A stretch of DNA of 64,000 nucleotides from an uncultured delta proteobacterium (GCA_963815835.1 CAWFIF010000001.1:772807-836806); one strand, 5' to 3'; positions 1,872 through 22,706 are shown, numbered from the stretch's first letter. The notes: generated by a model from the letters alone, not told the origin. Numbers and translations: made by a program.

Positions 1872-1998
1872 TGGAGCCGCGGGGCAGTTCCATTCTGGTC
1901 TCTTCATATCGGGCGCAGGCTGGTTTTCGAGCGCGATAAGAACGAGCTGGATGGTTCATTGATCCGCCGCGCAACCTAACGGCTGCGGGGGCGCCGGA

Positions 1999-3246: not shown

Positions 3247-4164
3247 ATGAAAGAAAAACCTCGATGGCTCAAGGAACTGTTGCCGTGGGAGCAGAAAACG
3301 ATCCCCGTCAACGGCCGCACGATGGCCTATGTGGACGAGGGGAATCGCGAGGGACGGCCGGTGCTGCTTCTGCACGGTAATCCGGTATGGGGATTTCTCT
3401 ATCGCGATTTCATTAAGCCGCTGGCGGACGCGGGATATCGCGTCATCGCGCCCGATTGGATTGGCTCCGGATACTCCGACCACCCGCGCGTCGATGCCTC
3501 GTTCACCCTCGCGCATCATATCGCGGACCTCGTCTCGCTCATCGATCAACTAAAACTGCGCGGCTTCGTCGTCGTCGGCCAGGATTGGGGCGGGCCGCAG
3601 GGAGTTGGGGCGGCATTGCAACGGCTCGGTGAGCTGTCCGCGTTGGTCCTGATGAACACCTGGCTCTACACCGACTACAAAGGACAGTTTCATCAGTCGC
3701 CGCTTCCGTGGACGACGTGGCATGCGCCGCTTATTGGCCAGCTTTTGATGAAGCGATTCAAAGTCCTCTCGCATGCCGGGCCGTCTGCGATCACCAAGCG
3801 CGGGATGAGCGATGCGGAGAAGCGTGCGTATCATCATGTGTACGATGAGCCTGATTCGGATCACGTGGTGCTCACCTGGCCGCGCACCATCCCGCTGCGC
3901 GAAGGCGATCGCGGATGGGCCGACATGCAGATGCTCCAGCGCCGATTGCCCGAGCTCGCAAAGACGCCAACGCTCCTGCTGTGGGCGCCGGAAGATGCGG
4001 TGTTCCCGATCGAGTATGCGAATCGGCTCAAGCAACTGCTTCCTCACGCGGAAGGACCGATCCTGTTCGACCGGGCATCGCACTTTCTGCAGGACGATCG
4101 CGGACCCGACCTGGTGGCCGCGATCATTTCGTTTCTGGGTCGCACCGTGGGGAATAATTTATGA
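3247..4164 (+). CDS. alpha/beta hydrolase, haloalkane-dehalogenase-like
   Basis: Motifs: HGNPVWGFLYR (oxyanion), GQDWGG nucleophile elbow, C-terminal His (ASHFLQDD). About 305 aa. Confidence 0.75.
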   Translation: MKEKPRWLKELLPWEQKTIPVNGRTMAYVDEGNREGRPVLLLHGNPVWGFLYRDFIKPLADAGYRVIAPDWIGSGYSDHPRVDASFTLAHHIADLVSLIDQLKLRGFVVVGQDWGGPQGVGAALQRLGELSALVLMNTWLYTDYKGQFHQSPLPWTTWHAPLIGQLLMKRFKVLSHAGPSAITKRGMSDAEKRAYHHVYDEPDSDHVVLTWPRTIPLREGDRGWADMQMLQRRLPELAKTPTLLLWAPEDAVFPIEYANRLKQLLPHAEGPILFDRASHFLQDDRGPDLVAAIISFLGRTVGNNL

Positions 4165-4550
4165 AGTTCATCACACCGTCAGCCGAAGAACTCGCCGGAT
4201 TGCGCGCCGATCCGCTGCTATGGGAACAAGAGCTCGACGTCCGCCCGGAAGTCGCGGAATCGATCGAGCGCGCGGCCGGAAAGCGTGCGGGAAAAGTCTT
4301 CTGGCGCTCCGCAAATAACCATCTATATGCGCTCGAACTTGCGGATCTCGGCCGCGGGCGCCCATCGATGGCGATGGTATACGGATATTGGAATCGCTAC
4401 GAACCGCGTCCGGCCGAGGATCAGATCGACGCGGACTTGATGGATTTTTGTTTGTGGGTGGCCGAAGTATCGGAAGGCCTCGACCCCGAGCATCTGGCGC
4501 GCGTGCTGACCTTCGCGGGTCATCCGGTGATGTGGCCGAAAGCGATCTAG
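4161..4550 (+). CDS. hypothetical protein, translationally coupled to the hydrolase (ATGA overlap)
   Basis: 129-aa ORF with no recognisable domain. Its 3' end is duplicated as a relic at 10255-10310. Confidence 0.4.
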   Translation: MKFITPSAEELAGLRADPLLWEQELDVRPEVAESIERAAGKRAGKVFWRSANNHLYALELADLGRGRPSMAMVYGYWNRYEPRPAEDQIDADLMDFCLWVAEVSEGLDPEHLARVLTFAGHPVMWPKAI

Positions 4551-4930
4551 AACTATGGTGTCCACATTTACCGGGAAGCGGTTCGAAAGCTAAAAAGCCA
4601 CTGTATCCAAACGCGCCATCTACTTTCAGCCGCTGACACGATTCGTGATCGAAGGGTAAATCCTCGTTCAACTTTCTTCGCATTGTCCGGTTGGCATGCC
4701 TTCTGCTGCGACTGTTTTTCAAGGCGCCATCGGGACCAAGCGAGGAAAAAATGTCTAGCGCATGGAATGCGAAAAAGGCTTCTGCGAAGGAGAGCACGGC
4801 TCGTTTGCGCGCGGATACGGGGTCTGCATCTTTCACGAACTCCACGCCGCCGATCGATGAGGGCCGCTAAGCTACCTCTTGTGCTTGCTTGTGACCCCGA
4901 CGGTCCCGCGCTCGGAGATAAAGGCGATAG

Positions 4931-6694
<1,764 letters not shown>

Positions 6695-6697
6695 AAC

Positions 6698-7701
6698 ATG
6701 GCGCTGCGACCAAGCATCGTGACCTCGAATGTCGACGCCGAGCACGCGCTGGCGCTATTGCGGGAGATGGTCCGTATCCGCCGCTTCGAAGAAAAATGCG
6801 CTGAGTTGTACAGTGCCACGAAGATTCGCGGATTCCTTCATCTATATATCGGTGAGGAGGCCGTCGCCGTCGGCGCGATGCGCGCGCTCACGCCGGAAGA
6901 CTCCGTCGTCGCGACCTACCGCGAGCACGGTCACGCGCTGTTGCGCGGGATTCCGGCCGGCGCGATCATGGCCGAGATGTTCGGCAAGCAGGAAGGATGC
7001 AGCCGGGGCCGCGGCGGCTCGATGCATCTGTTCGACGTGAAGCATCGATTTTTCGGCGACAATGCGATCGTGGGAGGCGGGCTGCCACTCGCGGTTGGCG
7101 TCGCGCTGGCCGACAAGCTGCAACATCGATCGAGAATCACCGCTTGCTTCTTCGGCGACGGCGCCGTGGCCGAGGGTGAGTTCCACGAATGCATGAACCT
7201 CGCGGCGTTGTGGAAGCTTCCGGTCCTGATGTGCTGCGAGAACAACCTCTATGCGATGGGCACGGCGCTGAAGCGAGCGCAATCGCAGACCGATCTGAGC
7301 CTCAAGGCGGCGGCATACGAAATGCCCTCGTGGCCGGTCGATGGGATGGACGTCGTAGCATGCGAGGAAGCCGCACATCGAGCCGCGCTCGCAGTGCGCT
7401 CCGGGGAGGGTCCCTGCTTTCTCGAATTCCGCACTTATCGCTTCCGCGCGCGCACTCGATGTACGATCCGCAGCTCTATCGCGACAAGCGCGAAGTCGAG
7501 GAATGGAAGAAACGCGATCCCGTCACAACCTTTCAGAATCGCCTGACGGCCGAGGACATTTTGGACGACGCAAACATGAAGCGCATCGAAGATGAGGTCG
7601 CGGCAGAAATCGAAAAAGCGATCGCATTCGCCGAAGCCGGCACCTGGGAACCGGTCGAAGAACTGACGCGTTTCGCATACTCGGAAAAAAAGCCGACATG
7701 A
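6698..7701 (+). CDS. TPP-dependent 2-oxoacid (acetoin/pyruvate) dehydrogenase E1 alpha subunit; single-nucleotide frameshift near 7447-7452
   Basis: N-terminal ORF 6698-7546 carries the TPP-binding [12 protein letters not shown] motif and ends ...LEFRTYRFR. The C-terminus continues in the +2 frame ([16 protein letters not shown] 7189-7701). The frames join inside a gcgcgcgc run. Confidence 0.75.
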
Positions 7702-8696
7702 GCTCGGACACGAACAAAATCAAGATCACGTATCGCGAGGCGATGCGTCAGGCGATTCGAGCGATGAATCGCGACGCGCGCGTCTTCCTGATGGGCGAAG
7801 ATGTCGGCGCGTACGGCGGATGCTACGCGGTGAGCAAGGGACTGCTGGAGGAATTCGGTCCCGATCGCATCCGCGACACGCCCCTCTCTGAATCGGCCTT
7901 CGTCGGTGCGGGAATCGGCGCAGCGATGAACGGCATGCGGCCGATTGTGGAAATCATGACGGTCAACTTCAGCCTGCTGGCGCTCGATCAAATCATCAAC
8001 AACGCGGCGACTATCCTTCACATGTCGGGCGGCCAGTTCAATATTCCGCTCGTGATCAGGATGACGACCGGCGCTGGCCGTCAACTCGCGGCGCAACATT
8101 CGCATAGCCTCGAAGGATGGTAAGCGCACATTCCGGGCATCAAGGTGCTTGCGCCGGCAACGTTGGAGGACGCGCGCGGGATGTTATGGACTGCGCTCGA
8201 GGATCCCGACCCGGTGCTCATCTTCGAGCATGGCACGCTCTATAACTTTGAAGGTGAGATGTCCGCCGATGCGGGCGCGGTCGAGATTTCGAAGGCCGCG
8301 GTGCGGCGCGCGGGCACGGATGTGAGCCTGATCACTTATGGTGGCACGCTCGGCAAGACGATACAGGCGGGGGAGCAGCTTGCCACGTCGGGCATCGATG
8401 CTGAGGTGATTGACCTTCGCACGCTGCGGCCGCTCGATACCGAGACGATTCTCGATTCGGTGACGCGCACGCATCGCGCGGTCATCATCGATGAAGGATG
8501 GCGTAGCGGCAGCATCTCGGCGGAGATCAGCGCGCGCGTCATGGAGGGCGGATTCTACGAACTGGACCTGCCGGTAGAACGCATCTGCAGCGCCGAAGTT
8601 CCCATACCTTATGCCAAACATCTTGAGGACGCCGCACTGCCGCAAGCTTCAACGATCGTCGAAACCGTGACGCGCATGGTGGGCGCTCATGGCTGA
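7698..8696 (+). CDS. 2-oxoacid dehydrogenase E1 beta subunit; in-frame TAA at 8121-8123
   Basis: ORFs 7698-8123 and 8145-8696 are in the same frame, separated by one TAA (..[19 protein letters not shown]..). Family consensus has Tyr/Phe (W-F/Y-AHIPG) at that codon. Transketolase-like pyrimidine and C-terminal domains are present. Confidence 0.75.
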
Positions 8697-9921
8697 TTTC
8701 CTCATGCCCTCGCTCGGCGCCGATATGGAAGTCGGCACCGTTCTGCAATGGCTGGTAAAGCCGGGTGACGCGGTGAAGCGCGGCGATATCGTCGCGGTGG
8801 TGGATACCGAGAAGGCCACTATCGAGTTGGAAATCTTCCAGACCGGCGTCATCCAAAAGATCGTCGTGCCCGAGGGCGAAAAGGTTCCTGTCGGTACGCT
8901 ACTGGCGGTGCTTGCGGTGGACGGCGAGGTCGTGCCCGCGCCTCCCGAAGTTAAACCTAAACCCGTCACCCTCACAGCGCCCCCGCCTGCTCCTGCGCCG
9001 GTCATTGCGAAGCCTCCGGCGAGGCCTGCCGCGCCCCATCGCATGCATATCTCCCCGCTCGCGATGCGCGTTGCGATGGATCTGAAGGTCAACCTCGCTA
9101 CCGTCAAGGGCACCGGCCCAGATGGCGCGATCACCAAGGCCGATGTCGAGCGCGCCGCGAAAGCTCCGCCGATGCCTCCTACGCCTCCAGCTGCCGCAAC
9201 TGTTGAAGCCCCAGCACCAGCAGCGCCCGCGAAGCCTGCAGTCGCACCTATTGACCATCATGCGGCGATGCGGAAAGTAATCGCGGCGGCGATGGCGCGC
9301 TCCAAGCGCGAGATACCGCATTACTACCTCGGCACGCACATCGACATGAGCAAAGCGATGGCCTGGCTGCAGGCCGAGAACCTCAAACGCCCGGTGACCG
9401 AACGGCTCCTCTATTCGGTACTGCTACTGAAAGCCGTCGCGCTCGCGGTTCACGAAGTACCCGAGATGAACGGCTTCTGGATCGATGGCGCGTCCAAACG
9501 GAGCGAGGCGGTTCACGTTGGCGTTGCAATATCGATTCGCCAGGGCGGGCTCATCGCGCCGGCGATCCACGATGTCGACAAAAAAAGCCTCGGCGAGATC
9601 ATGGTGAGTTTGCGGGATCTGGTAAAGCGCGTGCGCGCCGGCGTGCTTCGCAGTTCGGAAATTGCGGAGGCGACGATCACGGTCACCAGCCTCGGCGAGC
9701 AGGGCGTCGAAACTGTCTTCGGGGTCATCTACCCGCCGCAGGTCGCGCTGGTCGGGTTCGGCAAGATCGTCGAACAGGCGTGGGCGCGGGACGGTATGGT
9801 CGGCGCACGGCCTATTATGATGGCGAGCCTGTCGGGCGACCATCGCGCGAGCGACGGTCATCGCGGCGGATTGTTCGTTGCAGCCATCGAGCGTCTACTA
9901 CAGGAGCCGGAGAAGCTGTGA
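8689..9921 (+). CDS. dihydrolipoamide acyltransferase E2 (lipoyl domain + E3-binding domain + catalytic domain)
   Basis: Lipoyl-lysine motif [11 protein letters not shown], Ala/Pro linkers, PSBD ([26 protein letters not shown]) and catalytic DHRASDG motif. Confidence 0.85.
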
Positions 9922-10163
9922 CCGACGACGAGATCAAAACGCTCTATCTACGTGAGCTGCATAAGGTAGCACCCGAGGTCGAGTTAAGCGAAATCGATCC
10001 GGAGATCGATTTGCGCGAGCAGATCGATCTTGACTCGATGGACATCCTGAATCTCGCGATCGCGATCCACGAGGCGACAGGAGTTGATATTCCGGAAGCG
10101 GACTATCCGCAGATGGCGAGCTTGAACGGCTGCATGGCGTACCTGCATTCGCGCACCAGTTAG
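9918..10163 (+). CDS. acyl-carrier-protein-like phosphopantetheine-binding protein
   Basis: GTG start overlaps the E2 stop (GTGA). The 81-aa product contains the carrier-protein Ser motif IDLDSMDILNLAIAI. Confidence 0.55.
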   Translation: MTDDEIKTLYLRELHKVAPEVELSEIDPEIDLREQIDLDSMDILNLAIAIHEATGVDIPEADYPQMASLNGCMAYLHSRTS

Positions 10164-10254
10164 TGAAAACCTCCGCGTAGTCACCTGGTGCTGTTGTGTC
10201 TTAGGAACCCGGCACGACCTTCAATCGATGAGGCTTCGCTGCCTCGAGTCGAGA

Positions 10255-10310
10255 ACCTGGCGCAAGTGCTGACTTTCGCGGTCTTCCGGTGATGTGGCCG
10301 AAAGCGAGCT
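10255..10310 (+). other. relic duplicate of the 3' end of the gene at 4161-4550
   Basis: About 55 nt nearly identical to 4495-4550 (..gtgctgac.ttcgcgg.tc.tccggtgatgtggccgaaagcga..). No intact reading frame. Confidence 0.6.
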
Positions 10311-10364
10311 AAAGCGATAGCGCCCGACAAATCTGTCAGATGAGCACCGGCGAGTGAACTCGCC

Positions 10365-10601
10365 CTACCAACGCTGAAACCCACGTCGCGGAAGATTTCC
10401 GCCGTCGCAAATCGTATCGCACTTCCACGACGAGGCCTCGATGTTCCTTCCAGCCAGCTCCATGTACCACAAGAGCAGGATCGCGTCGGTCTGTTCGACG
10501 ACGAGATCGGGTGTGAAGCCCCAGACATGGCGCCGGTAACCGTCGAGCGCGCTATTGTAGTCGAGATTGGTGAGTGACCCAAAACCCGAAAAGTAGCCCA
10601 C
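10365..10601 (-). pseudogene. gene fragment abutting the IS3 left end (unknown family)
   Basis: 78-aa ORF starting 9 bp from the IS3 inverted repeat. No upstream continuation. Likely a truncated remnant. Confidence 0.3.
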
Positions 10602-10609
10602 CGATCAGT

Positions 10610-11937
10610 TGAGAGAGCGGCGACGAATTTGGTCCTCAGCAGAGCGATGAGGAGAGCACACGATGCCGAAGAAGGGTCAGAGCGGATGTTGCGCCAGGCG
10701 AGAGCGGGGACGAAGGTAAGCGCGATCTGTCGCGAACACGGAATCAGCGACGCGACTTTTCACAGTTGGAAGAAGAGGTAATGGAGCCTCGGCTTGAGCG
10801 AGTTGCGCGAACTGCGACAGTTGCGCGAAGAAACCCCCAAGCTCAAGCGGTTGGTGGCCGATCTTTCACTCGACCGGCACCTCCTGCAGGACATCGTGCA
10901 AAAGAGCTGTAAAGCTCCGGCAACGGCGCGCTCTGCGGCATTGGACCTAGGCGGCATACGCGCTCAGCACGCGGCGATCGTGAGGGCTGGTGAAAATCAC
11001 TCGAGTGACCGTGAGATAGCGGAGTCGGCGAGACCCGCAGCAGGCGCTACGGATGCGGCTTCGCGAACAGGCGGCGATCAGAGTGCGCTTGGGCTATCGG
11101 CGGCTGACAGTGTTGTTGAGACGCGAAGGATGGCGGGTCAACCCCAAGCGGATTTACCGCATGTTATACCGAGGACGGTCTGACGGTGCGGACCAAAACC
11201 CGCAACAAGATCGCGCGCTGCGCGCGGGTAGCGACACCCAAAGCAACCCGACCTAACGAACGCTGGAGTATGGACTTTATGCGCGCTCGGCTGCTCAATG
11301 GGCGCTGGTTTCGAGTGCTGACCATAGTCGATCAGTTTACCCGGGAGTGCCGCGCTTTGTCCGCTGACAACTCTCTCAACGGGAACCAGGTCGCGTTGGA
11401 ACTCTCGCAACTGGTAGCCGAGCACGGTGCACCGCGCTCGATCACTGCGGACAACGGCAGTGAATTTGTGAGTACAGCAATCGACACATGGGCTTACCAA
11501 CATGGTGTGCAACTGGACTTCATTTGTCCTAGCAAGCCGGTCGAGAACAGGTACATCGAGTCGTTCAAGGGGCGATTGCGCGACCAGTGCCTCAAGGTGG
11601 AGGTCTTTTTCGCGCTCGCCGACGTTCGCGAGAAGCTCCAGGTTGGCGCCAGGACAACAATCAGGTGCGGCCGCACAGTGCGCTAGCCGATCGGACGCCC
11701 GAGGAGTTTGCCAGAGCTTGGCAGGCTTTGAGCTCGGCTTCAGAGCGCACCGCGGGGCCAGCACACCACGCGCTGGCCGAAGCGGCGCTGGGCCCTGAAG
11801 CCGCGGATGCGAAACTTGTAGCGCTTTTCGGCTCGCCCTACCTCGAGATGAAGGGCGCGGCCGAAAAGCTGCTCATAGAAGCAGTCTAATCAGGTTTCCG
11901 CTCTGAACTGAGGAGCAGGATCGTTGCGTTTCTCTCG
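10610..11937 (+). mobile_element. IS3-family insertion sequence (IS407-like), degenerate
   Basis: OrfA-like N-terminus (MPKKGQ..RMLRQARAGTKVSAICREHGISDATFHSWKKR) plus leucine-zipper segment (ELRQLREETPKLKRLVADLSLDRHLLQDIV). OrfB rve/DDE integrase (WSMDFM.., ITADNGSEF, ..WRQDNNQVRPHSAL). Imperfect terminal IRs of about 37 bp start with TGAGAGAG. Frameshifts exceed the single programmed -1. Confidence 0.8.
10663..11889 (+). pseudogene. IS3-family transposase orfAB, multiply frameshifted
   Basis: Transposase homology is spread over at least four ORF fragments (10794-11183, 11053-11256, 11186-11686, 11587-11889) in different frames. Confidence 0.75.
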
Positions 11938-12320
11938 GGTCGCATGGTCGCGCCTCCATCATAGGAGGCGATGCTAACATGGCGTTTGATGTGCGTGGAT
12001 GGTTACTGTCAATTTTTCTCCCAAACCCAGTGCTAAGCGGCCGCCTTTCGCTGGCTCCCACGACAGCCAAAGCGGGCGATCTGCAAGCAGTCGATGCTGT
12101 CGGTCTTGATCCGCGCCAATTCTTCAACGCCAAAGCGATGTATGCGCTGCGGGTTGACCTTGCCCTCCGCAATTCCCCCACCTTGTCGTCCCCGACTGGC
12201 ATGTCGCGTGGACCAATACGCGACGACATCCGCGCGTCCTCGATGAGACGGGCGCAAACCGGGCTCGGAGAACGTCTACAATTGGCAGACTTCCTTGGTT
12301 TGACAGCACGCACGCCGTCG

Positions 12321-13527
12321 TCAATCCAAGCTCAGAACAAGGATCGTTGACGAGGCACTTTCATTGGCGGCGAGCATCGCGCGCAACTCGAGCGATTTCG
12401 CGCCTTGCTGGCGCGCTATTTTCGATCGCGCGCTCAAGAGACCGAAATCGTTTCCGGCATCATCCAGCTTGATTGCGAGATCGTTTTGAACCCGCAGAAT
12501 AGACGCGACTTGCCGCCACCGGCTCACCAACCGTTGCGACGATCTGTCTATGGCCGGACTTTGCAAGCTCCAGCGCGCCACGCATCGCGTCATCTCCGCG
12601 TCACGGGCCGACGAACCCGGTGAGGCTGCGACGGGCCGCGAACTGGAGCCTGGTCGCAGTGGGCTGAGTCCCCTGACTTCGTAAGCGTTTACGGGTTCGC
12701 TGACACCTTTCACCTTGGTCGGACCCAGCGGCTTGAGTTGAAAATATCCCGCCACGAATTTGCGCGTCTGCTCACTGATCGCGATCGAGCCGGTCGGCGC
12801 GAACGCCTGCATCCGCGCCGCCAGCCCGGTCGAATGACCAACCGGCGCGTATCCTGCCTGATCCGCGCCGGTGGCTATCGAACGCACCACCACCTCGTCC
12901 GTGTTGACGCCGACTCGGGCCTCGATGGGGGGAGGTTGCCCGCTTCGCGAGTCTTAAATGCATAGCGACGCATCTCTTCCTGCATCCGGAGAGCAGCATA
13001 GAGCGCGTTTGCGGATGGTCTTCATGGGCGATCGGCGCCCCAAACAGCGCGAAGATACCGTCACCGGTTAACTGGGCAGGGTAACCGCCATAACGCTGGA
13101 TCGCGTCGATCATGATCTTCAATGCAGGATCGACAATCGTGCGTGCCTCTTCGGGGTCCTTGATGTCGGCGAACAGCGCGGTGACCGTCTTGCGCTCGCC
13201 CTCGGGCGCCGCCGAGTCGTCAAATTCCGTCAGTGTGAGCTATGTTCGGGATGGCTCCGGTTGGGCGATCGCGAGACCGAGCGCAGCAGTTCATTGCCTA
13301 CAGAACTTGAATCCCGGCGGGTTCTGGAAGTGGCATTTCGGACAGATCAGTGCGAGCCGCCGGGTGCACTGACCGCAGAATTTCATTCCATCAGGATTGT
13401 CCGACCCGCATTTCGAGCAGCGCATTTTCCAGCCCCCCGGGTGCCGCAGGTCGCCTTTTCGACGAGGTTGCAGTCTTCTCAAGACGTGCCAATGTTGCCG
13501 ATCCCTTTTCCCGATAGAAATTAGCAC
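12321..13527 (-). pseudogene. adenylate/guanylate cyclase with N-terminal double zinc ribbon; frameshifted and 3'-truncated
   Basis: N-terminal CxxC zinc ribbons (MRCSKCGSDNPDGMKFCGQCTRRLALICPKCHFQNPPGFKFCRQ). Class III cyclase motifs lie in different frames (IQRYGGYPAQLTGDGIFALFGAPIAHEDHPQ; ALRMQEEMRRYA; VGHSTGLAARMQAFAPTGSIAISEQT..VKGVSEPVNAYEV). The gene runs into the IS3 element. Confidence 0.7.
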
Positions 13528-13912
13528 GAGTCACCGACCGCGTGTCTCGTTACGAGCCACGGCCCTTCGCCGCGCACCCGTTAGAGTCATCGCATTCCCG
13601 ATTGCAGCGCCACCCTCGTCAACTGCTACCGTGCGCCCGTCCACAGCGTGGTGCTCAGCGAGCCTGCGGCGATGGCCTTGCCTCACCGAGCCCTGTTTCA
13701 TTCGGCTAGCGTTGGTTCTTTCCGCGACAACAATGCTAGTTTTCAAATGTTCTCCGAAGAACATAATGTTCAATTTTCAAACTTGTCGTATAATTGCGTT
13801 GACCCAAGCAGCGGAACCGCCGAGACTACGGGTAGAATCGAATCCGGCCTGACGGAGGCCCTTGTGCTCGCCTTTTGGCTTTTCGGTTTGTCATTGGTAG
13901 TGGAGGTCTGAA

Positions 13913-14299
13913 ATGAAGATATTTCTCTTTACTATCCTGCTCGCGGCGCTGACCGCTAGCCTCGCCAGGGCCCAGTGCACGGGGTATTCAGCATGCGCTC
14001 ACAACAACAGTAAGGCGTGTGTTGACGCTCGCAACGCCTTCGCGAGACATCACAACGGGCTATATCCTGAACAGTGGTGTAACGAATGGTATCAAGGGCA
14101 GCAAGGACGCTGGAACCAGCGCGGTAATCACTGGCAATGGGAAGGCGCGGAAGGTGATCAGTGGTTTCAGGGACGGCGGGGACACTGGTTCAAGGAACGT
14201 GACGCCTGGCAATTCCGCGGCGATAAAGGCGATGAGTATCGGAACGGGCATAATGGCTGGCAATGGAGTGACGCCCGATCAAAGCACCATCGTGAGTGA
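13913..14299 (+). CDS. small secreted Trp/Gln/Gly-rich repeat protein
   Basis: 128 aa with signal peptide (MKIFLFTILLAALTASLARA). Mature part has degenerate W-x-W/F repeats (NHWQWEG, DQWFQG, GHWFKE, DAWQFRG, NGWQWSD). The AT-rich upstream region has lower GC than its surroundings. Confidence 0.5.
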   Translation: MKIFLFTILLAALTASLARAQCTGYSACAHNNSKACVDARNAFARHHNGLYPEQWCNEWYQGQQGRWNQRGNHWQWEGAEGDQWFQGRRGHWFKERDAWQFRGDKGDEYRNGHNGWQWSDARSKHHRE

Positions 14300-15365
14300 C
14301 GTCTGGTCCCGCTCAGTGTGACGTTTTCGAACGTCACCGTAACGGTGCTCACTAACACGCCTCCCAGGCAAATCTGCGATCTAGCGAGCAACTCACCCGC
14401 CCACCCTCTGATGGTTTCGCTTTTAACGTTAACGCGGGTCTAATCGCCAGTGAGCGGTCAGAAATGCGGACTACTTCGCAATGATCGCCGCCCTCGGAAA
14501 AAGGCGTAGTTGACTATTTAGTTCAAACCTCAGTCCGCCACGCGTCCCCGGAGCTGTTTGCTCGCGAGGCTCGCACCCTCAGCCATCGCCACCGTTATTG
14601 AGAATCCCGGCCTTCCCATAGGCAAACTCCCTGATCTCGTCGGGCTTGCAAATGTCTTGAGCCTGGATCGAAGTGGGCGAGTCACGAGGCCTCGGGAATT
14701 CCGCGCGACAAATAACCCGGCTGGCAGCTGAAAATTGTCGCCAATCAATTGCCGGACGCTCGCCGACGGGCGCCGCTTCCGCATCTTTGTGCGTGGTCAA
14801 CGACTTCAGCCGCGAGTGTCTTTACACAGAAGGATTATCGGGCAATGACCGATATCCTCGCTCCGGCTATAGCTAAAAGCCCCTATCGATCACGCCGTTT
14901 ATATGCTCAGGCGAGCTGGCCCGACATAGCCCGCAAAAATAAATGCCTTGTCAGGTCTGGTCTGCCCATAGCCAGTTTCATTTAGTCCAACCTGTAAGAT
15001 CACGAACCACCTCTTTGAGCGGAGGTGTTCTGGTAATCCAGAAATAAGCCGTCGAATCTGGATACAGGGTGCATCATCGCCGTGAGACAGATGTTCATCT
15101 TCCGATAAGTAGTGCTTCTTGTGCATTGCCGCTGCTCACGACGCGAACCCTCTTCGATTGCGCAATGGCACGACCGCCTCGGGTCAGTAATCGTTCAGAA
15201 AAAGTTGCATGAGCCTCTTGATCGCGGGTGGGGAGTCGCCTCCCCCAAAGAGTCTGCGCACTTTGAAGGTTCTCCGGGTCCAGTTCGCACTGACAGATAC
15301 AGTTCATCAGGGTTCAGTCGTCGTCGCTGAACAGGCTGGCCGAGTTTGTTCTCCACGTCCTCTCC

Positions 15366-15794
15366 CTAGTCGGACGACATGTCCTCTATGATGTGCATGT
15401 CGGGCTTCCGAGGACCCACATTCTCGCCTCGACTCAACAGTTCCACCCGAAGTCTGAGTGCATTTTCAGCGTCCTCTCGATGCGACGCGAATACGGACGT
15501 CTCCGCTGTGCGCACGATCCTGCCGTTCACGAACTCGACGAAAGGGCGCTCGACGTACGCAAATGCGGGATCATTTGTTTGCCACCTTCCAACGAGCGCA
15601 ACCTCCGGTCCCAACGGGAAGGTCAAGATCGTTCCGCGACCCGCTAGACCGTTTGCGAGCGGAAGCGGCGCGGATGCGTCTTGCCAGAACACTGGGTTGT
15701 CGCTCGTGACAAAGTGCATCCCGATCGGAGCGATCGCGTACCGCCATTTCATGCGGAACAGCAGCGGCGCAAACCCCTGCGCGATCTTGAGCAT
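15366..15794 (-). pseudogene. DUF4238-family protein, C-terminal portion only (N-terminus lost at IS5 insertion)
   Basis: 142 aa containing the DUF4238-like HFVTSDNPV motif. Family members are about twice this length. The ORF start sits 7 bp from the IS5-type inverted repeat. Confidence 0.45.
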
Positions 15795-15801
15795 GAACTC
15801 C

Positions 15802-16669
15802 CTAGGGAAGCTCTGGACAGGTTGATCGATTCAGGTACAAAGGAGTCAGTGGATCGGCGGATGTGGAGGTGTGGAGGTGGGAAATCAGCGGACGTTCGCA
15901 TCGGTGGCGTGGAATGCGAAGGGCAAGGTTACCCGGCGCGAGCGGTTCCTGGCCGAGATGGATGCGGTGATTCCGTGGCCGCGGCTGGTCAGGCTGATCG
16001 AACCGCACTACCCCAAAGCCGGACAAGGTCGCCAGCCGCTGGGGCTGGAGAAGATGCTGCGGATTTACTTTCTGCAGCAGTGGTTCAATCTGTCGGACCC
16101 GCAGGCCGAAGATGCGATCTACGACAGCGAGTCGATGCGCCGCTTTGCACGAGTCGAGCTGGGCGAGGAGACGGCCAGCTGCCCGATCTGCTGCATGGGC
16201 AGGAGCGCGAGCTGTTCGGCGATCAAGCGTACTGGAAGGAAGACGATCGAAGGTTTCTCGAGGCCTGGGGGTGCGCTACCGGATCAACCGGCGTCCTACC
16301 GCGCAGCGGCCGTTGAGCGAGCGCTGGCCGATGATCAACCGGGCGCGCTCGCGGACGCGGGCGCGCGGCGAACCGCCTTTCGCGTGGTCAAGCAACTGTG
16401 GGGTTTCGCCAAAGTGAGATACCGCGGTCTGGCCAAGAACCTGGCGCGAGCGCAGACCATGTTTGCCCTGGCTAATCTCTACCAGCTCCGCCGTGAGCTG
16501 CTCCCAGCAGGGGCGAGGTGCGTGTTGTGACCCCGATCGAGAGAACCGCAAATGGCTGCGACCACTTGCGAGGAACCAACAACCCGTCGCGCAGTTGCCT
16601 TTTCGCCGGATCCTAGTCACTTCCATATCAAACAGTCGTTGCAAAACGACCTGTGCAGAGCTTCCCTAG
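15802..16669 (+). mobile_element. IS5-family element, internally deleted derivative with CTAG target-site duplication
   Basis: 16-bp terminal IRs GGAAGCTCTGGACAGG (15806-15821) and its near-perfect inverted complement (16650-16665, one mismatch), each flanked by CTAG. Internal transposase fragments in several frames (MLRIYFLQQWFNLSDPQAEDAIYDSESMRRFA; LFGDQAYWKE; FRVVKQLWGFAKVRYRGLAKNLARAQTMFALANLYQLRR). Only about 0.86 kb where full-length IS5-family elements are about 1.2 kb. Confidence 0.8.
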
Positions 16670-17017
16670 GTGAACGGAATAAGAGGGATCGGAAATCTCG
16701 GGAAATTTCGATAACCCGATGAGTGCGTCGTTGCGGACCGCGGTCGGAAAAGCATTTGCGAGTTCGCTGTTGCTGTGAATCATCGTGACCAAGCCTATCG
16801 AACCTGATTTTATGGCGCTCGATCCTCCGCCGAATCTCGGCGTCGCGAAATTGAGGAGCCTAGCCTAAACCGCCTTCAGTTTCGGTCGCCACCTTTCTTT
16901 CGAAAATACCCCTTGATAGCTTCATTGGTAACGTTCAGGAAGCCTCGATTTCACGTGTGAGAGCCGAACGGGGCGGGAAGCGCTTCCGAGGCGGAGCGGC
17001 GTCGAGGAAAAGTCAAA

Positions 17018-17617
17018 ATGTCTCCAAAACAAATAGCCAAAGCGCTGGCGGCATTCGGCGTCATCGCCTTGGCCGCACTGGTGGGCGTGACCTACTACGT
17101 CGTCCACAATCGTGCGACTGCGCCGTTGATAACGGCGGTCGCCGGCTTGATTCCCGGGTCGCTCCTGCATGCCCACAACTTCCATTGGACGCAGATAAAG
17201 GACGGCGAGCAGCAGTGGGTGCTCACCGCACGCGATGCCAACTACTCGAACGACAAGACCTGGCTGCTCGACGACCCGGTTGTCACGCTCGTCTCGAAAG
17301 ATGGAAAGCCGGTCACCGTGAAGGCGCCCAAGGCCGTGCTCGACTTCGACGGCAACAAGGTCAAGCGCGCCAGGCTGAGTGGCGGAACACGCATCCGCTA
17401 CGGCGACTTCGTGCTTACCACCGATGTGGCTACCTTCCTCCCCGACGCTGACCAGGTCGACGCTCCAGGGTTCGTCACGATTGAGGGCGAGGGGATCAAG
17501 GTCACCGGGATCGGCTTGACCGGTCATACCAAAACCCGCCAGTTCGAGCTGCTCAAGCAAGTCAGCACCGACATCGCGCCGAAGCACAGCGGCCGTCCGG
17601 CTCCGAAGCAAGGCTGA
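17018..17617 (+). CDS. lptC: LPS export protein LptC
   Basis: 199 aa with N-terminal TM anchor then OstA-like beta-jellyroll. Lies directly upstream of lptA in the conserved rpoN locus. Confidence 0.7.
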   Translation: MSPKQIAKALAAFGVIALAALVGVTYYVVHNRATAPLITAVAGLIPGSLLHAHNFHWTQIKDGEQQWVLTARDANYSNDKTWLLDDPVVTLVSKDGKPVTVKAPKAVLDFDGNKVKRARLSGGTRIRYGDFVLTTDVATFLPDADQVDAPGFVTIEGEGIKVTGIGLTGHTKTRQFELLKQVSTDIAPKHSGRPAPKQG

Positions 17618-17629
17618 ACCAAGGCTGGA

Positions 17630-18547
17630 TTGATGACCGGGTCCGCCCAGAAAATTTCACCCCTTGCCGCCGCAATCGTGCTAGGTTTCGGAATCCTGAT
17701 TGCACCGCATCTGAATTTGGCATTCGCGCAGAACGAGCCCGAGCCAGAGACAACGCCCATCGAGGAACCGAACGCCGAGCCTACCGACTGGACACCAGTG
17801 ACCGCGGGCGAAGCTGACCGAGGTGGGCCAGCGGCGAGCCAGGAAGCGGCGACCTCACCTGCGAGCGAGCACATGCCAGCCGAGTCGCCGACGCCTCTGA
17901 CCGCAGCGGAAGGACCCTCCCCTGCGGCGACGCCGGTCAGCGGGGAGCGCGCGCCGGGGAACTCGAACGTTGGATCGAGAAGAACCACCGAATCGATGTC
18001 TCCGTCGTCGATATCAAACCCCTCGACCAACGCGCCATCTTCGCAGGCTCCCACATCTCAGAATGCAGGCAAGGCCCCGGCGGCGGTACCCTCGAACTCG
18101 CCCTTCGTGGGGATGAACTTCGGCAATCAGAAAGGACCGACCAACATCAAATCGGACACCGGCACCCTCGATTATCAAAATAAGGCGGTTCTGTTCGCGG
18201 GGCACGTGCATGCGGTGCAGGCCGACGGCGACCTGACCAGCGATACTCTCAAGGTCCAATACGGCCAGACTTTCAACGATATCAAGATGATGTATGCCGA
18301 TGGCAATGTGAGAATGAGTCAGGGGACGCGCTGGATAACCAGCGATCACGCGGTGCTCGACCAGACCAAACATCTCCTTACGTTTCGTGGCAACCCGGTG
18401 GCTCACGATGGGCAGGACCAGATCACCGGTTCGACGATTACCGTCAACCTGGTAACCAACAAAAGCACGGTCGAAAATCCGCGGGTGGTGATCTTCCCTC
18501 GAGAGTCCAAAAAACCTGATAATGTAGACTCGCCAGATAGCCCGTGA
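17630..18547 (+). CDS. lptA: LPS transport periplasmic protein LptA (OstA-like) with long low-complexity N-terminal linker
   Basis: Signal peptide, Pro/Ser/Ala-rich linker, then OstA-like repeats (SDTGTLDYQNKAVLFAGHVHAVQADGDLTSDTL.., ITSDHAVLDQTKHLLTFRGNPV). Confidence 0.75.
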   Translation: MMTGSAQKISPLAAAIVLGFGILIAPHLNLAFAQNEPEPETTPIEEPNAEPTDWTPVTAGEADRGGPAASQEAATSPASEHMPAESPTPLTAAEGPSPAATPVSGERAPGNSNVGSRRTTESMSPSSISNPSTNAPSSQAPTSQNAGKAPAAVPSNSPFVGMNFGNQKGPTNIKSDTGTLDYQNKAVLFAGHVHAVQADGDLTSDTLKVQYGQTFNDIKMMYADGNVRMSQGTRWITSDHAVLDQTKHLLTFRGNPVAHDGQDQITGSTITVNLVTNKSTVENPRVVIFPRESKKPDNVDSPDSP

Positions 18548-18560
18548 GTTAGTTGGACGG

Positions 18561-20129
18561 ATGGCCCTTGAAGTAAAGCTCGGACAAGATTTACGCCTGC
18601 GTCAGCAGCTGGTGATGACCCCCCAGCTTCAGCAGGCGATAAAGATCCTGCAATTGTCGCTTCCTGAACTGGAGGCGGTGGTCCAATCGGAACTCGAATC
18701 TAACCCGGTCCTTGAACCCCTCGATTCGAGCCCGGCCGAAAATGCGCCGGAAAATAGCAGCAATTCCGACGAAGAGTTCACTCCTCCCGCGGATGGGGAA
18801 CTCTCCGAAGAGCGCGAGGCAGCGCCGGCCTCGGCCGATGAACCTCCCAACGAATGGGACGCACCTCCCGGTTCCGAAGAGATCCCAGTCGCCCCCAGCG
18901 AGGCTCGCGATGCGGCGGTCGAAATGGAGCAGTTTGACCGCATCGATAAGCTCGACTGGCGCGAGTACATGGAGAATTACTCCAACAACTGGCAGGAGGC
19001 CGAACCCGCCGACCCTGACGACGAGCGCCGCCAGACCGTCGAGAACACGCTGACCCGCAAGACTTCGCTCGAAGACCATCTGATGTGGCAGCTTCGGCTT
19101 TCGAGCCTGAGCGAGGGCGACCAGCGTATCGGCGCGACTATCATTTACAACCTCAATGATGACGGCTACCTCGAAACCCCCCTCGCCGAACTGGCGACGC
19201 AACTCGAGGTCCCCGAGGCCGAGGTCGAGCGCGTGCTCAAGCGCGTGCAGCAGTTCGATCCGCCGGGCGCGGTCGCGCGCGACCTTCGCGAATGCCTCCT
19301 TCTCCAACTCAAGAACCTCGGTATGGAGGAATCGCTCGCCGCGCGAGTAGTGAGCAATCACCTCGACCTGCTCGAGAAGCATCGCTACAACGAAATCGCC
19401 AAACTGCTCGGCGTCAGCGTCGAGGCTGTCAATCAGGCGCAGAAGTTCATTTCGGTGCTGGAGCCGAAGCCGGGGCGCGACTATGGCGGCGAGGAGCCGA
19501 CCTACGTAATCCCCGATGTATTCATCGTTAAGATGGGCAACGATTATGTGGTTACATTGAATCAGAGCGCGGTGCCGCGCCTGCGGCTCGCGGGCTATTA
19601 CCAGCGCGTGATGAACGATGGCCAGACCGGCGCCGAGGCGAAAGAATATCTGCAGGAACGGCTTCGTTCCGCCAAGTGGCTGGTTAAGTCGATCTATCAG
19701 CGGCAGCAGACGATTTATAAGGTTGCCAACTCGATCATCAAATTCCAGCGCGCCTTTTTCGATCATGGAATCGGCAGCCTCAGGCCGCTGGTGCTGAAGG
19801 ATGTCGCGGAGGATATCGGGATGCATGAATCGACGATTAGCCGCGCCACCGCCAACAAGTACGCGCATACGCCACAAGGGATTTTCGAACTTAAGTTCTT
19901 TTTCACCTCTGGCGTCAAAGCCGGCAGCGGCGAGGATGTCAGCGCGGAAACCGTGAAGGAAAAAATCCGCGCGATGGTGACGGTCGAACAGGCCAACAAT
20001 CCTCTCTCGGATCAGGCTATCGCTGAGGTTTTGCGTCGCGACAATATCAATATCGCGCGCCGCACGGTGGCGAAGTATCGGCAAGCGCTGGGAATCCTGC
20101 CGTCGGCGAGCCGTAAACGGGTCGGTTAA
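18561..20129 (+). CDS. rpoN: RNA polymerase sigma-54 factor
   Basis: N-terminal activator-interacting region (LRLRQQLVMTPQLQQAIKILQLS), acidic linker, C-terminal HTH and RpoN box (ARRTVAKYRQALGI). Confidence 0.92.
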   Translation: MALEVKLGQDLRLRQQLVMTPQLQQAIKILQLSLPELEAVVQSELESNPVLEPLDSSPAENAPENSSNSDEEFTPPADGELSEEREAAPASADEPPNEWDAPPGSEEIPVAPSEARDAAVEMEQFDRIDKLDWREYMENYSNNWQEAEPADPDDERRQTVENTLTRKTSLEDHLMWQLRLSSLSEGDQRIGATIIYNLNDDGYLETPLAELATQLEVPEAEVERVLKRVQQFDPPGAVARDLRECLLLQLKNLGMEESLAARVVSNHLDLLEKHRYNEIAKLLGVSVEAVNQAQKFISVLEPKPGRDYGGEEPTYVIPDVFIVKMGNDYVVTLNQSAVPRLRLAGYYQRVMNDGQTGAEAKEYLQERLRSAKWLVKSIYQRQQTIYKVANSIIKFQRAFFDHGIGSLRPLVLKDVAEDIGMHESTISRATANKYAHTPQGIFELKFFFTSGVKAGSGEDVSAETVKEKIRAMVTVEQANNPLSDQAIAEVLRRDNINIARRTVAKYRQALGILPSASRKRVG

Positions 20130-20249
20130 GTTCCGATCCAAAGGTCCAGGCCAATCTGCATGAGTATGAAAAATGGCAAGGGCAAGAAGAACCGGGCTAT
20201 CGCGCGCAAGGCCAAACAGCAACAACGGCTTAAGGGTTCGGAGATCACA

Positions 20250-20582
20250 GTGAACGTAACCTTCCGTCATATGGAGCCGACCGATGCGCTCCGGCAGTAC
20301 GCGGAAAAAAAGTTCGCGCATCTGGGACGCATCCTGAAACGGCCCGGTGAGGCGCATTTGATTCTCGAGGTCAACAAGTATCGCCAATGCGGCGAGGTTA
20401 CTTTCAAATCGGGCCGGCTGGCGGCGACCGCGATCGAAGAGAACACCGACCTCTATGCGGTCATCGATTTGCTCACCGACAAGATCGGGCGCCAGCTGAA
20501 GAAGCATGTTGAAAAAGTGAATGGCAAGAAAATGCGCTCGCCTTCGACGCCGGAGGTGCTCGCCGCCGCGGAGGAGTCGTAG
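20250..20582 (+). CDS. hpf: ribosome hibernation promoting factor / sigma-54 modulation protein
   Basis: HPF/RaiA fold motifs (NVTFRHMEPTDALRQYAEKKF..LYAVIDLLTDKIGRQLKKH). GTG at 20250 is preceded by GGAG. The annotated ORF extends to an ATG at 20160, adding a Lys-rich 30-aa extension of uncertain reality. Confidence 0.75.
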   Translation: MNVTFRHMEPTDALRQYAEKKFAHLGRILKRPGEAHLILEVNKYRQCGEVTFKSGRLAATAIEENTDLYAVIDLLTDKIGRQLKKHVEKVNGKKMRSPSTPEVLAAAEES

Positions 20583-20704
20583 CAAAGCATTCGCGAGTGG
20601 GGGGTAATGCGCGCGGCGCAACACGCATTGCGCGTGGTGCAATGCGAAAGTTGACCTCCTCGCGGCGCTCCTACATAGATACATATGGGACCGGAACGGA
20701 CCTC

Positions 20705-21166
20705 ATGAAGATTACCGACTTCCTGACACCCGAGATGATCGAGCCGTCGCTCAAGGGGCAGAGCAAAGCTGAAGTTCTTGAAGAACTTGCAGGATGCCTC
20801 ACCAGGCAGCATCCGGAGATTCCATCGAATGAGATGCGCGCGGTGTTGGCCGAACGCGAGCGGCTGGGCTCGACGGCAATCGGCGACGGCATCGCGATCC
20901 CGCACGGCAAACTGCCCAAAGTCACGAAGATTCTCGGAACCTTCGGCCGTCACGTTCAGGGAGTCGATTTCGAATCGCTCGACGGCAACCCGACGCATCT
21001 GTTTTTCATGCTGGTCGCGCCGGAGGATTCCACCAGCCTCCATCTTAAGGCGCTCGCGCGCGTCTCGCGTTTGCTGCGCGACGGAAACTTCAGGGAGAAG
21101 CTTCTGAACGCGCCCGACGCGAACGAGCTCTTCCGGCTGATTCGCGAAGAGGACAGCAAGTTCTAG
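20705..21166 (+). CDS. ptsN: PTS IIA-like nitrogen regulatory protein (EIIA-Ntr)
   Basis: 153 aa with the EIIA-Ntr His region (GDGIAIPHGK) and conserved position after hpf. Confidence 0.8.
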   Translation: MKITDFLTPEMIEPSLKGQSKAEVLEELAGCLTRQHPEIPSNEMRAVLAERERLGSTAIGDGIAIPHGKLPKVTKILGTFGRHVQGVDFESLDGNPTHLFFMLVAPEDSTSLHLKALARVSRLLRDGNFREKLLNAPDANELFRLIREEDSKF

Positions 21167-21198
21167 TTCGCGCCGCATCGGCCTGCTAGACAGAAAGC

Positions 21199-22077
21199 GT
21201 GGCCGCGGATTCAACACAACCGCGTTTGATCATCGTCACCGGCGTGTCCGGCGCGGGGCACACCTCGGCGATGCGCGTGCTCGAGGATCTAGGCTTCTAT
21301 TGCGTCGATAATTTGCCCGTCGCGCTCGCGCCCACGGTGCTACGGCTCGCGCGCGAAAGCGGCAAGGACTTCCCTGGCGTTGCCCTAGGAATCGATTCGC
21401 GCCAGCGCGCCTTCTTCAGCCAGTGGCCCACGATATCCGCGGAACTCGAGCGCGAGGGGATGCATCCGGAGGTCTTGTTCCTCGACGCTTCGGAGGAAGT
21501 GCTTGCGCGCCGCTATTCCGAGACCCGCCGGCCGCATCCGCTCGGCTACACCGGCAAGGGAATCGCGGATTTGATTCGCGAGGATCGTCAGGCGCTCGCC
21601 GCCATGCGCGAGCTTGCCAGCCGTGTCATAGATACCTCGACCACCACCGTGCATGAGCTTCGCGAGCTTGTGACGGCCGCTGTGATGGCCTCGGCGACCG
21701 GCGATCGGATGGTAATCTCGATCGTGTCATTCGGTTACAAATACGGCGCGCCGGTCGGGCTCGACCTGGTGCTCGACGTGCGATTCATACCTAACCCATT
21801 TTTCATTCCCGAGTTGAAGATGCTCACCGGTCTCGATCAAGCGGTGCACGATTACGTCATGAGCAAGCCGGAGTCGAAGCAGTTCATCGACGAGGTTGGC
21901 AGGGTGCTCGATTTCCTGATCCCGCTGTATCAGCGCGAGGGAAAAAGCTACCTGACAATCGGGCTGGGATGCACCGGTGGACGGCATCGCTCGCCGGCGC
22001 TCGCGCGAGAGCTTCGCGATCGCCTCGCGCGCAGCGGATATGAGGTGCTGGTACGCGACCAGGACGTTGCCCGGTGA
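21199..22077 (+). CDS. rapZ: RNase adapter protein RapZ (YhbJ-like P-loop NTPase)
   Basis: Walker A GVSGAGHTSA and the C-terminal RapZ domain (GCTGGRHRSPA). Conserved position after ptsN. Confidence 0.85.
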   Translation: MAADSTQPRLIIVTGVSGAGHTSAMRVLEDLGFYCVDNLPVALAPTVLRLARESGKDFPGVALGIDSRQRAFFSQWPTISAELEREGMHPEVLFLDASEEVLARRYSETRRPHPLGYTGKGIADLIREDRQALAAMRELASRVIDTSTTTVHELRELVTAAVMASATGDRMVISIVSFGYKYGAPVGLDLVLDVRFIPNPFFIPELKMLTGLDQAVHDYVMSKPESKQFIDEVGRVLDFLIPLYQREGKSYLTIGLGCTGGRHRSPALARELRDRLARSGYEVLVRDQDVAR

Positions 22078-22685
22078 AACCGAACGGGCGGCGGGTTGGA
22101 AGTCAGATACCCGGTCTCGTCCGAGTCATCGCGAGGCGGATACTTTCAGAACAAGACGTTCCGGAAACCAAGGTCATCGTATCGATTGGCAGGCCGAGGC
22201 CGGATTCGCAGCACGACTGGGCATGCCCTTTTCTCATCGAAGGCATCAGGGAGTCGAAAGTTCAATTCTCCTACGGCGTCAACGCCATGCAAGCGCTCAT
22301 AATCGCCTTCCAAGTCATTCGAGCCATTATTAAGCAAAGCGGACGGAAACTATTTTGGCTCGGTCCCAAGATGGCAACGCATTTTCCGCTGCTTGTGCCC
22401 ACCTCATTTGGGAAAGCATTCGAGGATCGAGTAGGCCTTGCGATTGAGCGCGAAATCGTCCGCGAATGGCGCACTACTATAAGGAGCCGCAGAGCCAAAA
22501 TTCGAGCGCACGAAATAAAATTGCGACACCAAGGAATCGCGCCCGCGAAAATCGCGCGCACGGTGGCCGAAGGGAAGAGAGACCTCGACGAGTGGGAGGC
22601 CTCTATAAATAAGCTGAAGCCGGGATGGAATCGTCAGGTGCCAACGAACGAACCTCGCCGACGCAAGAGCAAAAGCGGGAGATGA
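22074..22685 (+). CDS. hypothetical protein with highly basic C-terminal tail
   Basis: 203-aa ORF overlapping the rapZ stop by 4 nt. Noticeably lower GC than flanking genes. No recognisable domain. Conserved-looking DWACPFLIEG segment near the N-terminus. Confidence 0.45.
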   Translation: MKPNGRRVGSQIPGLVRVIARRILSEQDVPETKVIVSIGRPRPDSQHDWACPFLIEGIRESKVQFSYGVNAMQALIIAFQVIRAIIKQSGRKLFWLGPKMATHFPLLVPTSFGKAFEDRVGLAIEREIVREWRTTIRSRRAKIRAHEIKLRHQGIAPAKIARTVAEGKRDLDEWEASINKLKPGWNRQVPTNEPRRRKSKSGR

Positions 22686-22706
22686 ATGCTCGGCGATGCC
22701 GAGCAT

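Follow-up and report, generated by a model that had tools for sequence, protein, structure and literature searches.

Synteny breakpoints that are associated with insertion sequences (IS) and accompanied by pseudogenes are known from IS-expanded genomes such as those of Shigella, Yersinia pestis and Bordetella pertussis. A comparable situation was found in a stretch of about 6.7 kb (positions 10164-16888) inside 64 kb of DNA from an uncultured bacterium; these 64 kb are called the window here, and positions are counted from its first nucleotide. As in the IS-expanded genomes, IS remnants lie at a change of gene order, the adjacent genes are truncated or inactivated, and some of the lesions vary between closely related strains. 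The locus differs in that its host appears to be an uncultured, Binataceae-like soil bacterium and no host-restricted pathogen, and in that one 64-kb window without other IS copies does not show a genome-wide IS expansion. We consider it probable (about 0.82) that the stretch consists of debris without function, left where the chromosome of this Binatota bacterium was rearranged. The junction would link a block encoding an AMP-ligase, the E1 and E2 proteins of a 2-oxoacid dehydrogenase and an ACP (left) with the lptC-lptA-rpoN-hpf-ptsN-rapZ block (right). What was observed directly is the anatomy of the stretch, the lesions together with their recurrence in independent assemblies, and the break in synteny. 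The stretch comprised a dead full-length IS3-family element, a broken zinc-ribbon adenylate cyclase gene, the C-terminal fragment of a DUF4238 gene and an IS5-family derivative, and the IS remnants amounted to at least four elements of three families (IS3, IS5 and IS110, the last a weak assignment; Table 1).

Relatives were recovered in three ways. The LptC protein (17018-17617) as a query gave seven genome loci, all from metagenome-assembled genomes (MAGs), which were labeled "uncultured delta proteobacterium" apart from one Candidatus Binataceae and one Terriglobia. Their identities to the window were 65-79% for LptC and 86-97% for RpoN, and on these values the host was judged to be a Binataceae-like (Binatota) soil bacterium. 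Look-ups of exact proteins led to short-read metagenome contigs from several other samples, essentially of the same species, with no match for E2, the AMP-ligase, the open reading frame (ORF) at the IS5 junction or ORF 14899-15126. Samples with this strain comprised GCA_052916045.1, GCA_052915765.1, GCA_052915985.1 and ERR11523662. When metagenomes were scanned with E2, the left-hand operon turned up at 80 loci, and about 35 long contigs were compared. These sequences served to ask whether the lesions are real, whether the gene order is conserved, and whether the genes of the stretch occur intact elsewhere. The profile libraries were Pfam, NCBIfam, PADLOC, PHROGs and Rfam, and DNA and translated comparisons included tblastx.

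All seven genome relatives were collinear with the window from about position 16889 rightwards, through lptC, lptA, rpoN, hpf, ptsN, rapZ and beyond. In every one of them the motif ACCTTTCTTTCGAAAATACCCCTTGATAGC preceded lptC by about 20 nt, regardless of the gene further upstream. Beyond the motif the order changed: kdsB-pyrG-kdsA was present in five of the seven, and a different, divergently transcribed gene in the other two (L008 and L009). No similarity to window positions 1-16880 was detected in the upstream flanks of the seven relatives, which were compared over 10 kb each. The left-hand module, previously described as acetoin dehydrogenase-like, adjoined lptC in none of the seven genome and about 35 metagenome loci, and the genes of the stretch were absent from the flanks of the about 35 module-bearing contigs. 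The initial annotation had proposed a decayed accessory island bracketed by two IS, and had named the adjacency of the operon and lptC elsewhere as a point to check. They were not adjacent in any relative examined, and intact versions of these genes in the same order were found in none of about 40 related loci. Since the flanks are not neighbors in the relatives, the stretch is best read as a rearrangement junction and not as an inserted island, that is, as a synteny breakpoint joining blocks that normally lie far apart, with no insertion between neighbors. The bracketing itself did not stand either, as IS3 and IS5 show no relationship to each other and form no composite unit. The composition was weak evidence of foreign origin. 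The other part of that proposal, an IS-scrambled region undergoing deletion decay, held in its core and was favored by the absence of such intact versions elsewhere, and each of its six listed components was found at or near the place given for it.

The lesions recurred in contigs assembled from other samples. Contig L018 carried two 1-nt indels relative to the window, none at a lesion site, and both L018 and L015 were gap-free through the cyclase gene; four further contigs started in the right part of the IS5 element and ran into lptC. As they were seen in short-read contigs of other samples, the lesions in the E1, IS3 and adenylate cyclase genes and the IS5/lptC junction were independently reproduced and are not sequencing errors. 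One stop codon (TAA) in OrfA of the IS3 element was TAC (Tyr) in L018, a clear polymorphism between near-identical strains. This indicated that the decay is ongoing. At two points the contigs left the window: L015 diverged at 14818, and past 16174 L019 and L020 continued as full-length IS5, where the window has a deletion. These divergences may be strain differences or branches of the assembly graph, so that the breakpoint at 14818 and the internal deletion of IS5 may also be strain-variable.

Table 1. Features at and around the junction, and contigs from other samples that cover parts of it (positions in the window).
Feature or contig	Position	Strand	Remarks
E1-alpha (2-oxoacid dehydrogenase) pseudogene	6698-7697	+	Two extra nt (CG) at 7445-7446, within a (CG)n run
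E1-beta pseudogene	7698-8696	+	In-frame TAA at 8121-8123 (…SLEGW*AHIPG…)
Unassignable ORFs	10181-10582; 10365-10601 (78 aa, overlapping)	-	Next to the left inverted repeat of IS3, which starts at 10610/10611
Decayed copy of the 3' end of gene 4161-4550	10241-10311	+	85% identical to 4477-4549, 1-nt deletion
IS3-family element, full length (1328 bp), dead	10610-11937	+	Imperfect inverted repeats; HTH_Tnp_1, rve, rve_3
Internal fragment of an IS110-family transposase gene (weak assignment)	12033-12257	-	…VNPQRIHRFG…KTDSIDCLQIARF…
Class III adenylate/guanylate cyclase pseudogene	12321-13527	-	Pfam DZR/Zn_ribbon and partial Guanylate_cyc
Promoter-like site TTTTCA-16-CATAAT	13740-13767	+	Upstream of the Trp-rich gene; consensus match
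Trp-rich repeat protein, 128 aa, intact	13913-14299	+	N-terminal hydrophobic leader; 56 homologues
Second, different IS3-family (rve) remnant, start only	14673-14818	+	Cut off at 14818
Unassigned DNA, slightly AT-richer, short ORFs only	14819-15365		No family
C-terminal fragment of a DUF4238 gene	15366-15794	-	N-terminal ~165 profile positions missing
IS5-family internal-deletion derivative, 860 bp	15806-16665	+	CTAG at 15802-15805 and 16666-16669
Unassigned spacer, 219 nt	16670-16888		From the IS5 end to the start of conserved synteny
Conserved motif ACCTTTCTTTCGAAAATACCCCTTGATAGC, 37 nt	16889-16925	+	Precedes lptC in 7/7 relatives, 91-100% conserved
Contig L018	7182-12800		99.4% identity, two 1-nt indels, none at a lesion site
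Contig L015	12674-14818		99.4% identity, no gaps
Contig L019	14965-16170		99.0% identity
Contig L020	15036-16174		99.6% identity
Contigs L001, L002, L003, L006	Start at 16388-16639, run into lptC		99.6-99.9% identity

The IS3-family element had the layout of its family, with a length of 1328 bp, imperfect inverted repeats (10611-10646 and 11899-11936, 27 aligned positions matching), an OrfA with a helix-turn-helix and a leucine zipper-like part, and an rve-domain OrfB behind it. It differed in that both ORFs were destroyed and in that the right end read …CG where the family has …CA; the left end was TG, and the flanking triplets, where the family has a target duplication of 3-4 bp, were AGT and GGT. 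Pfam matches comprised HTH_Tnp_1 (10629-10781, E = 5.5e-8), rve (E = 9.1e-21) and rve_3 (E = 2.9e-10), the latter two at 11186-11686 and 11587-11889. The IS3 transposase profile NF033516 was matched in pieces (5-37, 139-178 and 209-345) spread over three frames, the best of them scoring 105 bits, below the cut-off of 160. OrfA and OrfB of IS3 elements are normally joined by a -1 programmed frameshift. Here, translation in three frames placed the OrfA stop at 10779-10781; OrfB was interrupted by three stops in its N-terminal part, and the frame shifted near 11175 and again near 11650. Relative to IS3 elements of a plasmid collection, DNA identity was 66-69% over about 20% of the length. The whole element was covered by L018, and the straight reading through it suggested a unique dead copy.

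Left of this element, the two overlapping ORFs matched no Pfam, NCBIfam or PADLOC family, and a homology search returned the same ORF only. The truncated ORF that had been described as abutting the inverted repeat is thus present, and its description as a truncated gene could not be upheld for any family, its one homologue being itself; the 78-aa ORF may be spurious or an unrecognizable remnant. ORF 4171-4845 (minus strand) was considered as a paralogue of the left-edge ORF and rejected, as it looked spurious and low in complexity (R, P and S), and the true similarity was a 73-nt stretch on the plus strand. To the right of IS3, the IS110-family assignment was based on a weak match to NF033542 (E = 7.8e-4, profile positions 77-111 of 343), with no match in Pfam. 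This fragment and the second IS3-family fragment were absent from the initial annotation.

What remained of the adenylate cyclase gene was a double zinc ribbon, a cyclase core and ~40 residues from the start of an AAA_16 domain, in the right order and spread over three frames, with two in-frame stops in the linker between the zinc ribbon and the cyclase. After the start of AAA_16 the reading jumped to a short stretch, "ARQQGAKSLELRA", which we take to be typical of the C-terminal region of zinc-ribbon/cyclase/AAA_16 proteins; if so, the gene would have undergone an internal deletion of roughly 2 kb. A frame-corrected reconstruction of 328 residues gave more than 7000 matches among zinc-ribbon/cyclase/AAA_16 proteins (best E = 1.6e-136, 67% identity, 100% coverage), and this full-length alignment with the family validated the reconstruction. 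No close intact orthologue was present in the databases searched. The reconstructed N-terminal 328 residues aligned end to end with proteins of this class, whereas the copy in the window is a pseudogene that has lost most of the AAA/TPR part.

No family was matched by the ORFs in 14300-15365, the kilobase or so previously described as without an ORF over 90 codons; yet positions 14673-14818 were the start of a second IS3-family element. Contig L015 was gap-free up to 14818, and from there its rve frame (…VVDDFSRECLATVVDTSLSDVRVVRELD…) ran on for 487 nt that are missing from the window. The ORF of L015 matched NF033516 (E = 2.7e-4), and tblastx gave 55% identity to an IS3 copy on another contig (L013) and 43% to the first IS3 element. 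Because the frame of 14673-14818 continued in L015, the ORF-free kilobase is partly IS debris, and 14818 appears to be a deletion or rearrangement breakpoint. Rfam yielded no credible RNA, either in the stretch at E <= 1 or in the whole window at the gathering score, so the ORF-poor kilobase is not a known non-coding RNA, intron or riboswitch.

The DUF4238 fragment scored 43.7 bits with PF14022 (cut-off 27) and covered only profile positions 171-280 of 281; PADLOC reported it as DUF4238-Pers (E = 2.5e-4). The C-terminal match is shared with DUF4238 proteins, and the window keeps about 40% of the domain, so the fragment would not be expected to have a function. One DUF4238 protein conferred resistance to phage T7 in a study of P2-prophage hotspots (Rousset et al., bioRxiv 10.1101/2021.01.21.427644). 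The fragment does abut the IS5 end, as described before; 11 nt separate it from the start of IS5 and 6 nt from the extended palindrome, where 7 bp had been given. An insertion of IS5 that split the gene was considered: after removal of the IS in silico, an open frame of 66 codons resulted and the profile match gained just six positions. Since the N-terminal half of the DUF4238 gene is not found past IS5, plain insertion cannot explain the truncation, and a mechanism of IS-associated deletion gained support.

The IS5-family derivative showed the likeness of its family in terminal inverted repeats starting GGAAG… (22 nt, 95% complementary), in CTAG on both sides, and in the DUF772 region and conserved C-terminal segment of the transposase. 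Its ORF kept the N-terminal DUF772 region and the C-terminal end, and matched NF033581 in two stretches with 103 bits (cut-off 140); of the domain pair DUF772 and DDE_Tnp_1 that marks such transposases, DUF772 alone was matched. The related full-length copy on L019, from the same population, encoded an intact transposase of 322 aa (325 bits over profile positions 1-285). Against this copy, the transposase gene of the window was short of 313 nt in its middle, from about 16172 onwards, and single nucleotides were missing near 16270 and 16373. At best, therefore, the copy could be mobilized by the transposase of another copy. The short-read contigs broke inside IS5, and we infer that the family is still present in multiple copies; it may also be active.

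The composition of the stretch was mildly atypical. Its GC content was 58.8%, as against 59.7% outside. The lowest 1-kb windows (55-56%; z -1.8 to -2.1, minimum z = -2.07) lay at 13.5-15.5 kb, and the "AT-rich patch" in which the Trp-rich ORF had been placed amounted to no more than this. The tetranucleotide distance over 13-16 kb reached a z of about 2.1, below that at 38-40 kb. These values are compatible with relaxed constraint and with foreign origin alike, and they are weak as evidence for horizontal transfer. The PADLOC and PHROGs scans gave the weak DUF4238 match, a negligible Cas8g match and nothing else. No integrase was found among the ORFs scanned in the stretch, no direct repeats bordered it, and no further copies of these IS were present in the window's remaining 57 kb. 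The sole tRNA gene of the window, a tRNA-Sec (anticodon TCA; 20720-20811, minus strand), lay between the hpf/ptsN region and rapZ, 3.8 kb past the right edge of the stretch. The disruptions were concentrated in 7.4-16.7 kb, and the neighboring genes were uninterrupted: the right-hand genes gave long unbroken tblastx segments against the relatives, and the left AMP-ligase aligned over 586 of 587 residues. The decay is thus local.

Here, the following course of events was proposed. Elements of the IS3, IS110 and IS5 families may have inserted in or near accessory genes (the adenylate cyclase regulator, the DUF4238 gene and others). Deletions next to these IS, or recombination between them, would then have removed halves of genes and the original neighbors of both blocks, and the stranded elements and fragments would have gathered frameshifts, stop codons and internal deletions. 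We infer this order, and the part of IS recombination in it, from the arrangement of the remains. Several points weigh against the proposal of a rearrangement junction. The scope was the 64-kb window, which does not include kdsB-pyrG-kdsA or reciprocal IS copies that would mark the other end of an inversion or translocation. The joins at 14818-14965 and 16172/16173 are carried by the window alone, with no independent contig across them. CTAG on both sides of IS5 fits a plain insertion, but this is not diagnostic, as an unrelated IS copy on L019 was likewise flanked by CTAG. Finally, the region upstream of lptC is variable among the relatives, L008 and L009 showing a third arrangement, so that the ancestral state was derived from the majority.

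A horizontally acquired accessory island that decays in place between ancestrally adjacent loci would account for the accessory type of the genes (a candidate defense gene whose family includes the T7-resistance protein, a paralogous adenylate cyclase regulator, and mobile elements), for their absence from the flanks in relatives, and for the dip in GC and the tetranucleotide deviation over 13-16 kb. However, the two flanks were adjacent in none of about 40 related loci, there was no integrase, bordering tRNA or flanking direct repeat, the unrelated IS3 and IS5 elements make no composite transposon, and the difference in GC is small, with lost coding constraint explaining the local dip equally well. 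We therefore regard such an island as unlikely. Still less credence was given to a technical artefact of the sequencing or the assembly, for example indels in long reads or a chimeric join within repeats. The relatives found were long-read MAGs, and the source of the window may be likewise; one difference specific to the window was a homopolymer length at 7685, and the other-sample contigs diverge exactly at the joins that lack coverage. On the other hand, the CG insertion of E1-alpha, the TAA of E1-beta, the frameshifts of IS3 and the lesions of the cyclase gene recurred in independent short-read assemblies, the disruptions clustered in 7.4-16.7 kb, with the neighboring genes uninterrupted, and a collapse between IS copies would be expected to yield a full-length IS and not one minus 313 nt. 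Thus an artefact is very improbable.

Least credible of all is a working locus, such as a defense or signaling cassette whose split ORFs are read by programmed frameshifting or act as separate domains. The -1 frameshift is normal for IS3, and one gene, the Trp-rich one, is unbroken and preceded by a promoter-like site and by a GGAGG that resembles a ribosome-binding site (RBS). In contrast, IS3 OrfB contains three in-frame stops in its N-terminal part, the frame of which fits neither OrfA nor the catalytic core; the cyclase gene is interrupted by stops in its linker, and most of its AAA/TPR part is gone; the DUF4238 gene keeps only the last 110 or so positions of its profile (171-280 of 281); and the IS5 transposase lacks its middle. 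Rearrangement with subsequent decay remained the preferred explanation. The components all belong to well-known families (IS3, IS5, probably IS110, class III cyclases with AAA_16, and DUF4238), although the elements themselves are unnamed, and the locus is a case of ordinary genome decay at a rearrangement junction and no new kind of system.

For annotation, this means that the stretch should be recorded as pseudogenes and IS remnants, and that its short ORFs should not become hypothetical proteins. Beyond annotation its import is small. It is a synteny breakpoint in a member of the Binatota, a phylum about which little is known. The decay steps are strain-variable, certainly for one stop codon and possibly for the IS-internal deletion and the breakpoint. 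The pseudogenes of E1-alpha and E1-beta also affect any metabolic reconstruction from the genome of this species.

These pseudogenes belong to the left-hand operon, which had been called intact and was not. In E1-alpha, the Pfam E1_dh match ended at profile position 228 of 300, and a switch of frame was seen in the translation; in five relatives the protein was uninterrupted (333 aa) and the gene was without the additional CG, which was also present in L018. In E1-beta, the relatives aligned through the site of the TAA with 78-92% amino acid identity. L018, from another sample, was identical at this site, and the truncated 141-aa product was also called there. Each of the two genes carries one recent lesion. 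Speculatively, selection on the module may have relaxed once the rearrangement had taken place, and the lesions may be a consequence.

The module itself (AMP-ligase, E1-alpha, E1-beta, E2 and ACP) was conserved with 55-93% amino acid identity in the about 35 long metagenome contigs, and its surroundings varied even between close relatives. After the ACP gene, a gene of ~184 aa (MQRPVQITSRDFQLTPAMEAQIRERADDLQLYFPRLTGCHVVVEAP…) was found in six of 11 close relatives (L036, L038, L039, L029, L026 and L030) and was missing from the window; its translation looked, by eye, like HPF/RaiA, and it would be a second gene of this type beside the one after rpoN. A 73-nt direct repeat (4477-4549 and 10241-10311, 85% identical) bracketed exactly the module. 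Its first copy was the 3' end of a small gene (4161-4550, 129 aa, …HLARVLTFAGHPVMWPKAI*), and the second lay just past the ACP gene. In L036, some 3 kb separated the ACP gene from a hydrolase gene and the 129-aa gene, which lay downstream of it in inverted orientation. The window and L018 differed in 33 places, 20 of which fell in the 3' part of the E2 gene (9489-9968, 480 nt), mostly spaced in multiples of three. This cluster suggests a tract of recombination from a diverged allele.

The Trp-rich gene looks functional and is the sole apparently live gene of the stretch, so that its earlier inclusion in the decayed debris could not be maintained. Besides the promoter-like site, a perfect TATAAT (about 13786-13791) and an RBS-like GGAGG 8 nt before the ATG were seen upstream, all as matches to consensus. 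Exact copies of the gene occurred in three other samples. The non-identical members among its 56 homologues were found at E-values down to 2e-59, and 55 of the 56 were without a Pfam domain. In this undescribed family of small proteins, an N-terminal hydrophobic leader and a head containing Cys are conserved, as are the W/Y-Q-G-x-x-G-x-W repeats, the number of which is variable. An AlphaFold2 model (pLDDT 71) consisted of successive beta strands, which we read as a beta-meander; a fold search of the model against the PDB gave no significant match. Three contexts of homologues were examined: IS debris, small proteins of the BON and CsbD types, and a DUF6306 gene beside an RND pump in a Binataceae MAG. 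In none of these three was an adenylate cyclase or DUF4238 gene found beside the homologue. One homologue was fused to CsbD/YjbJ, and one lineage had BON and CsbD neighbors.

Two further ideas were considered jointly and are regarded as unlikely. The Trp-rich family might be a new envelope stress protein that moves on its own, an idea which came from the BON/CsbD neighbors, the CsbD fusion, the variable repeats and the all-strand fold without a match in the PDB. The AMP-ligase/E1/E2/ACP module, in turn, might be a mobile cassette that integrates at the 3' ends of genes, because the 73-nt repeat brackets it and its context varies between relatives.

On the right side of the junction, the motif upstream of lptC has been retained and may be a regulatory element, in which case the expression of lptC would presumably be preserved. 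Between the motif and the start of lptC, 77 extra nucleotides (16926-17002), containing a GGGAAGCGCTTCC palindrome, were present in the window only and in none of the seven relatives. Away from the junction, the top tetranucleotide deviation of the window was located at 37001-40000 (z up to 3.9), which exceeded anything in the stretch. Contig L001, from a near-identical strain, matched the window over 16388-22077. Beyond this match, ~118 nt of L001 (5691-5808) without similarity stood opposite about 610 nt of the window (22078-22689), which hold an ORF of 203 aa (22074-22685). This indel downstream of rapZ is another polymorphism.

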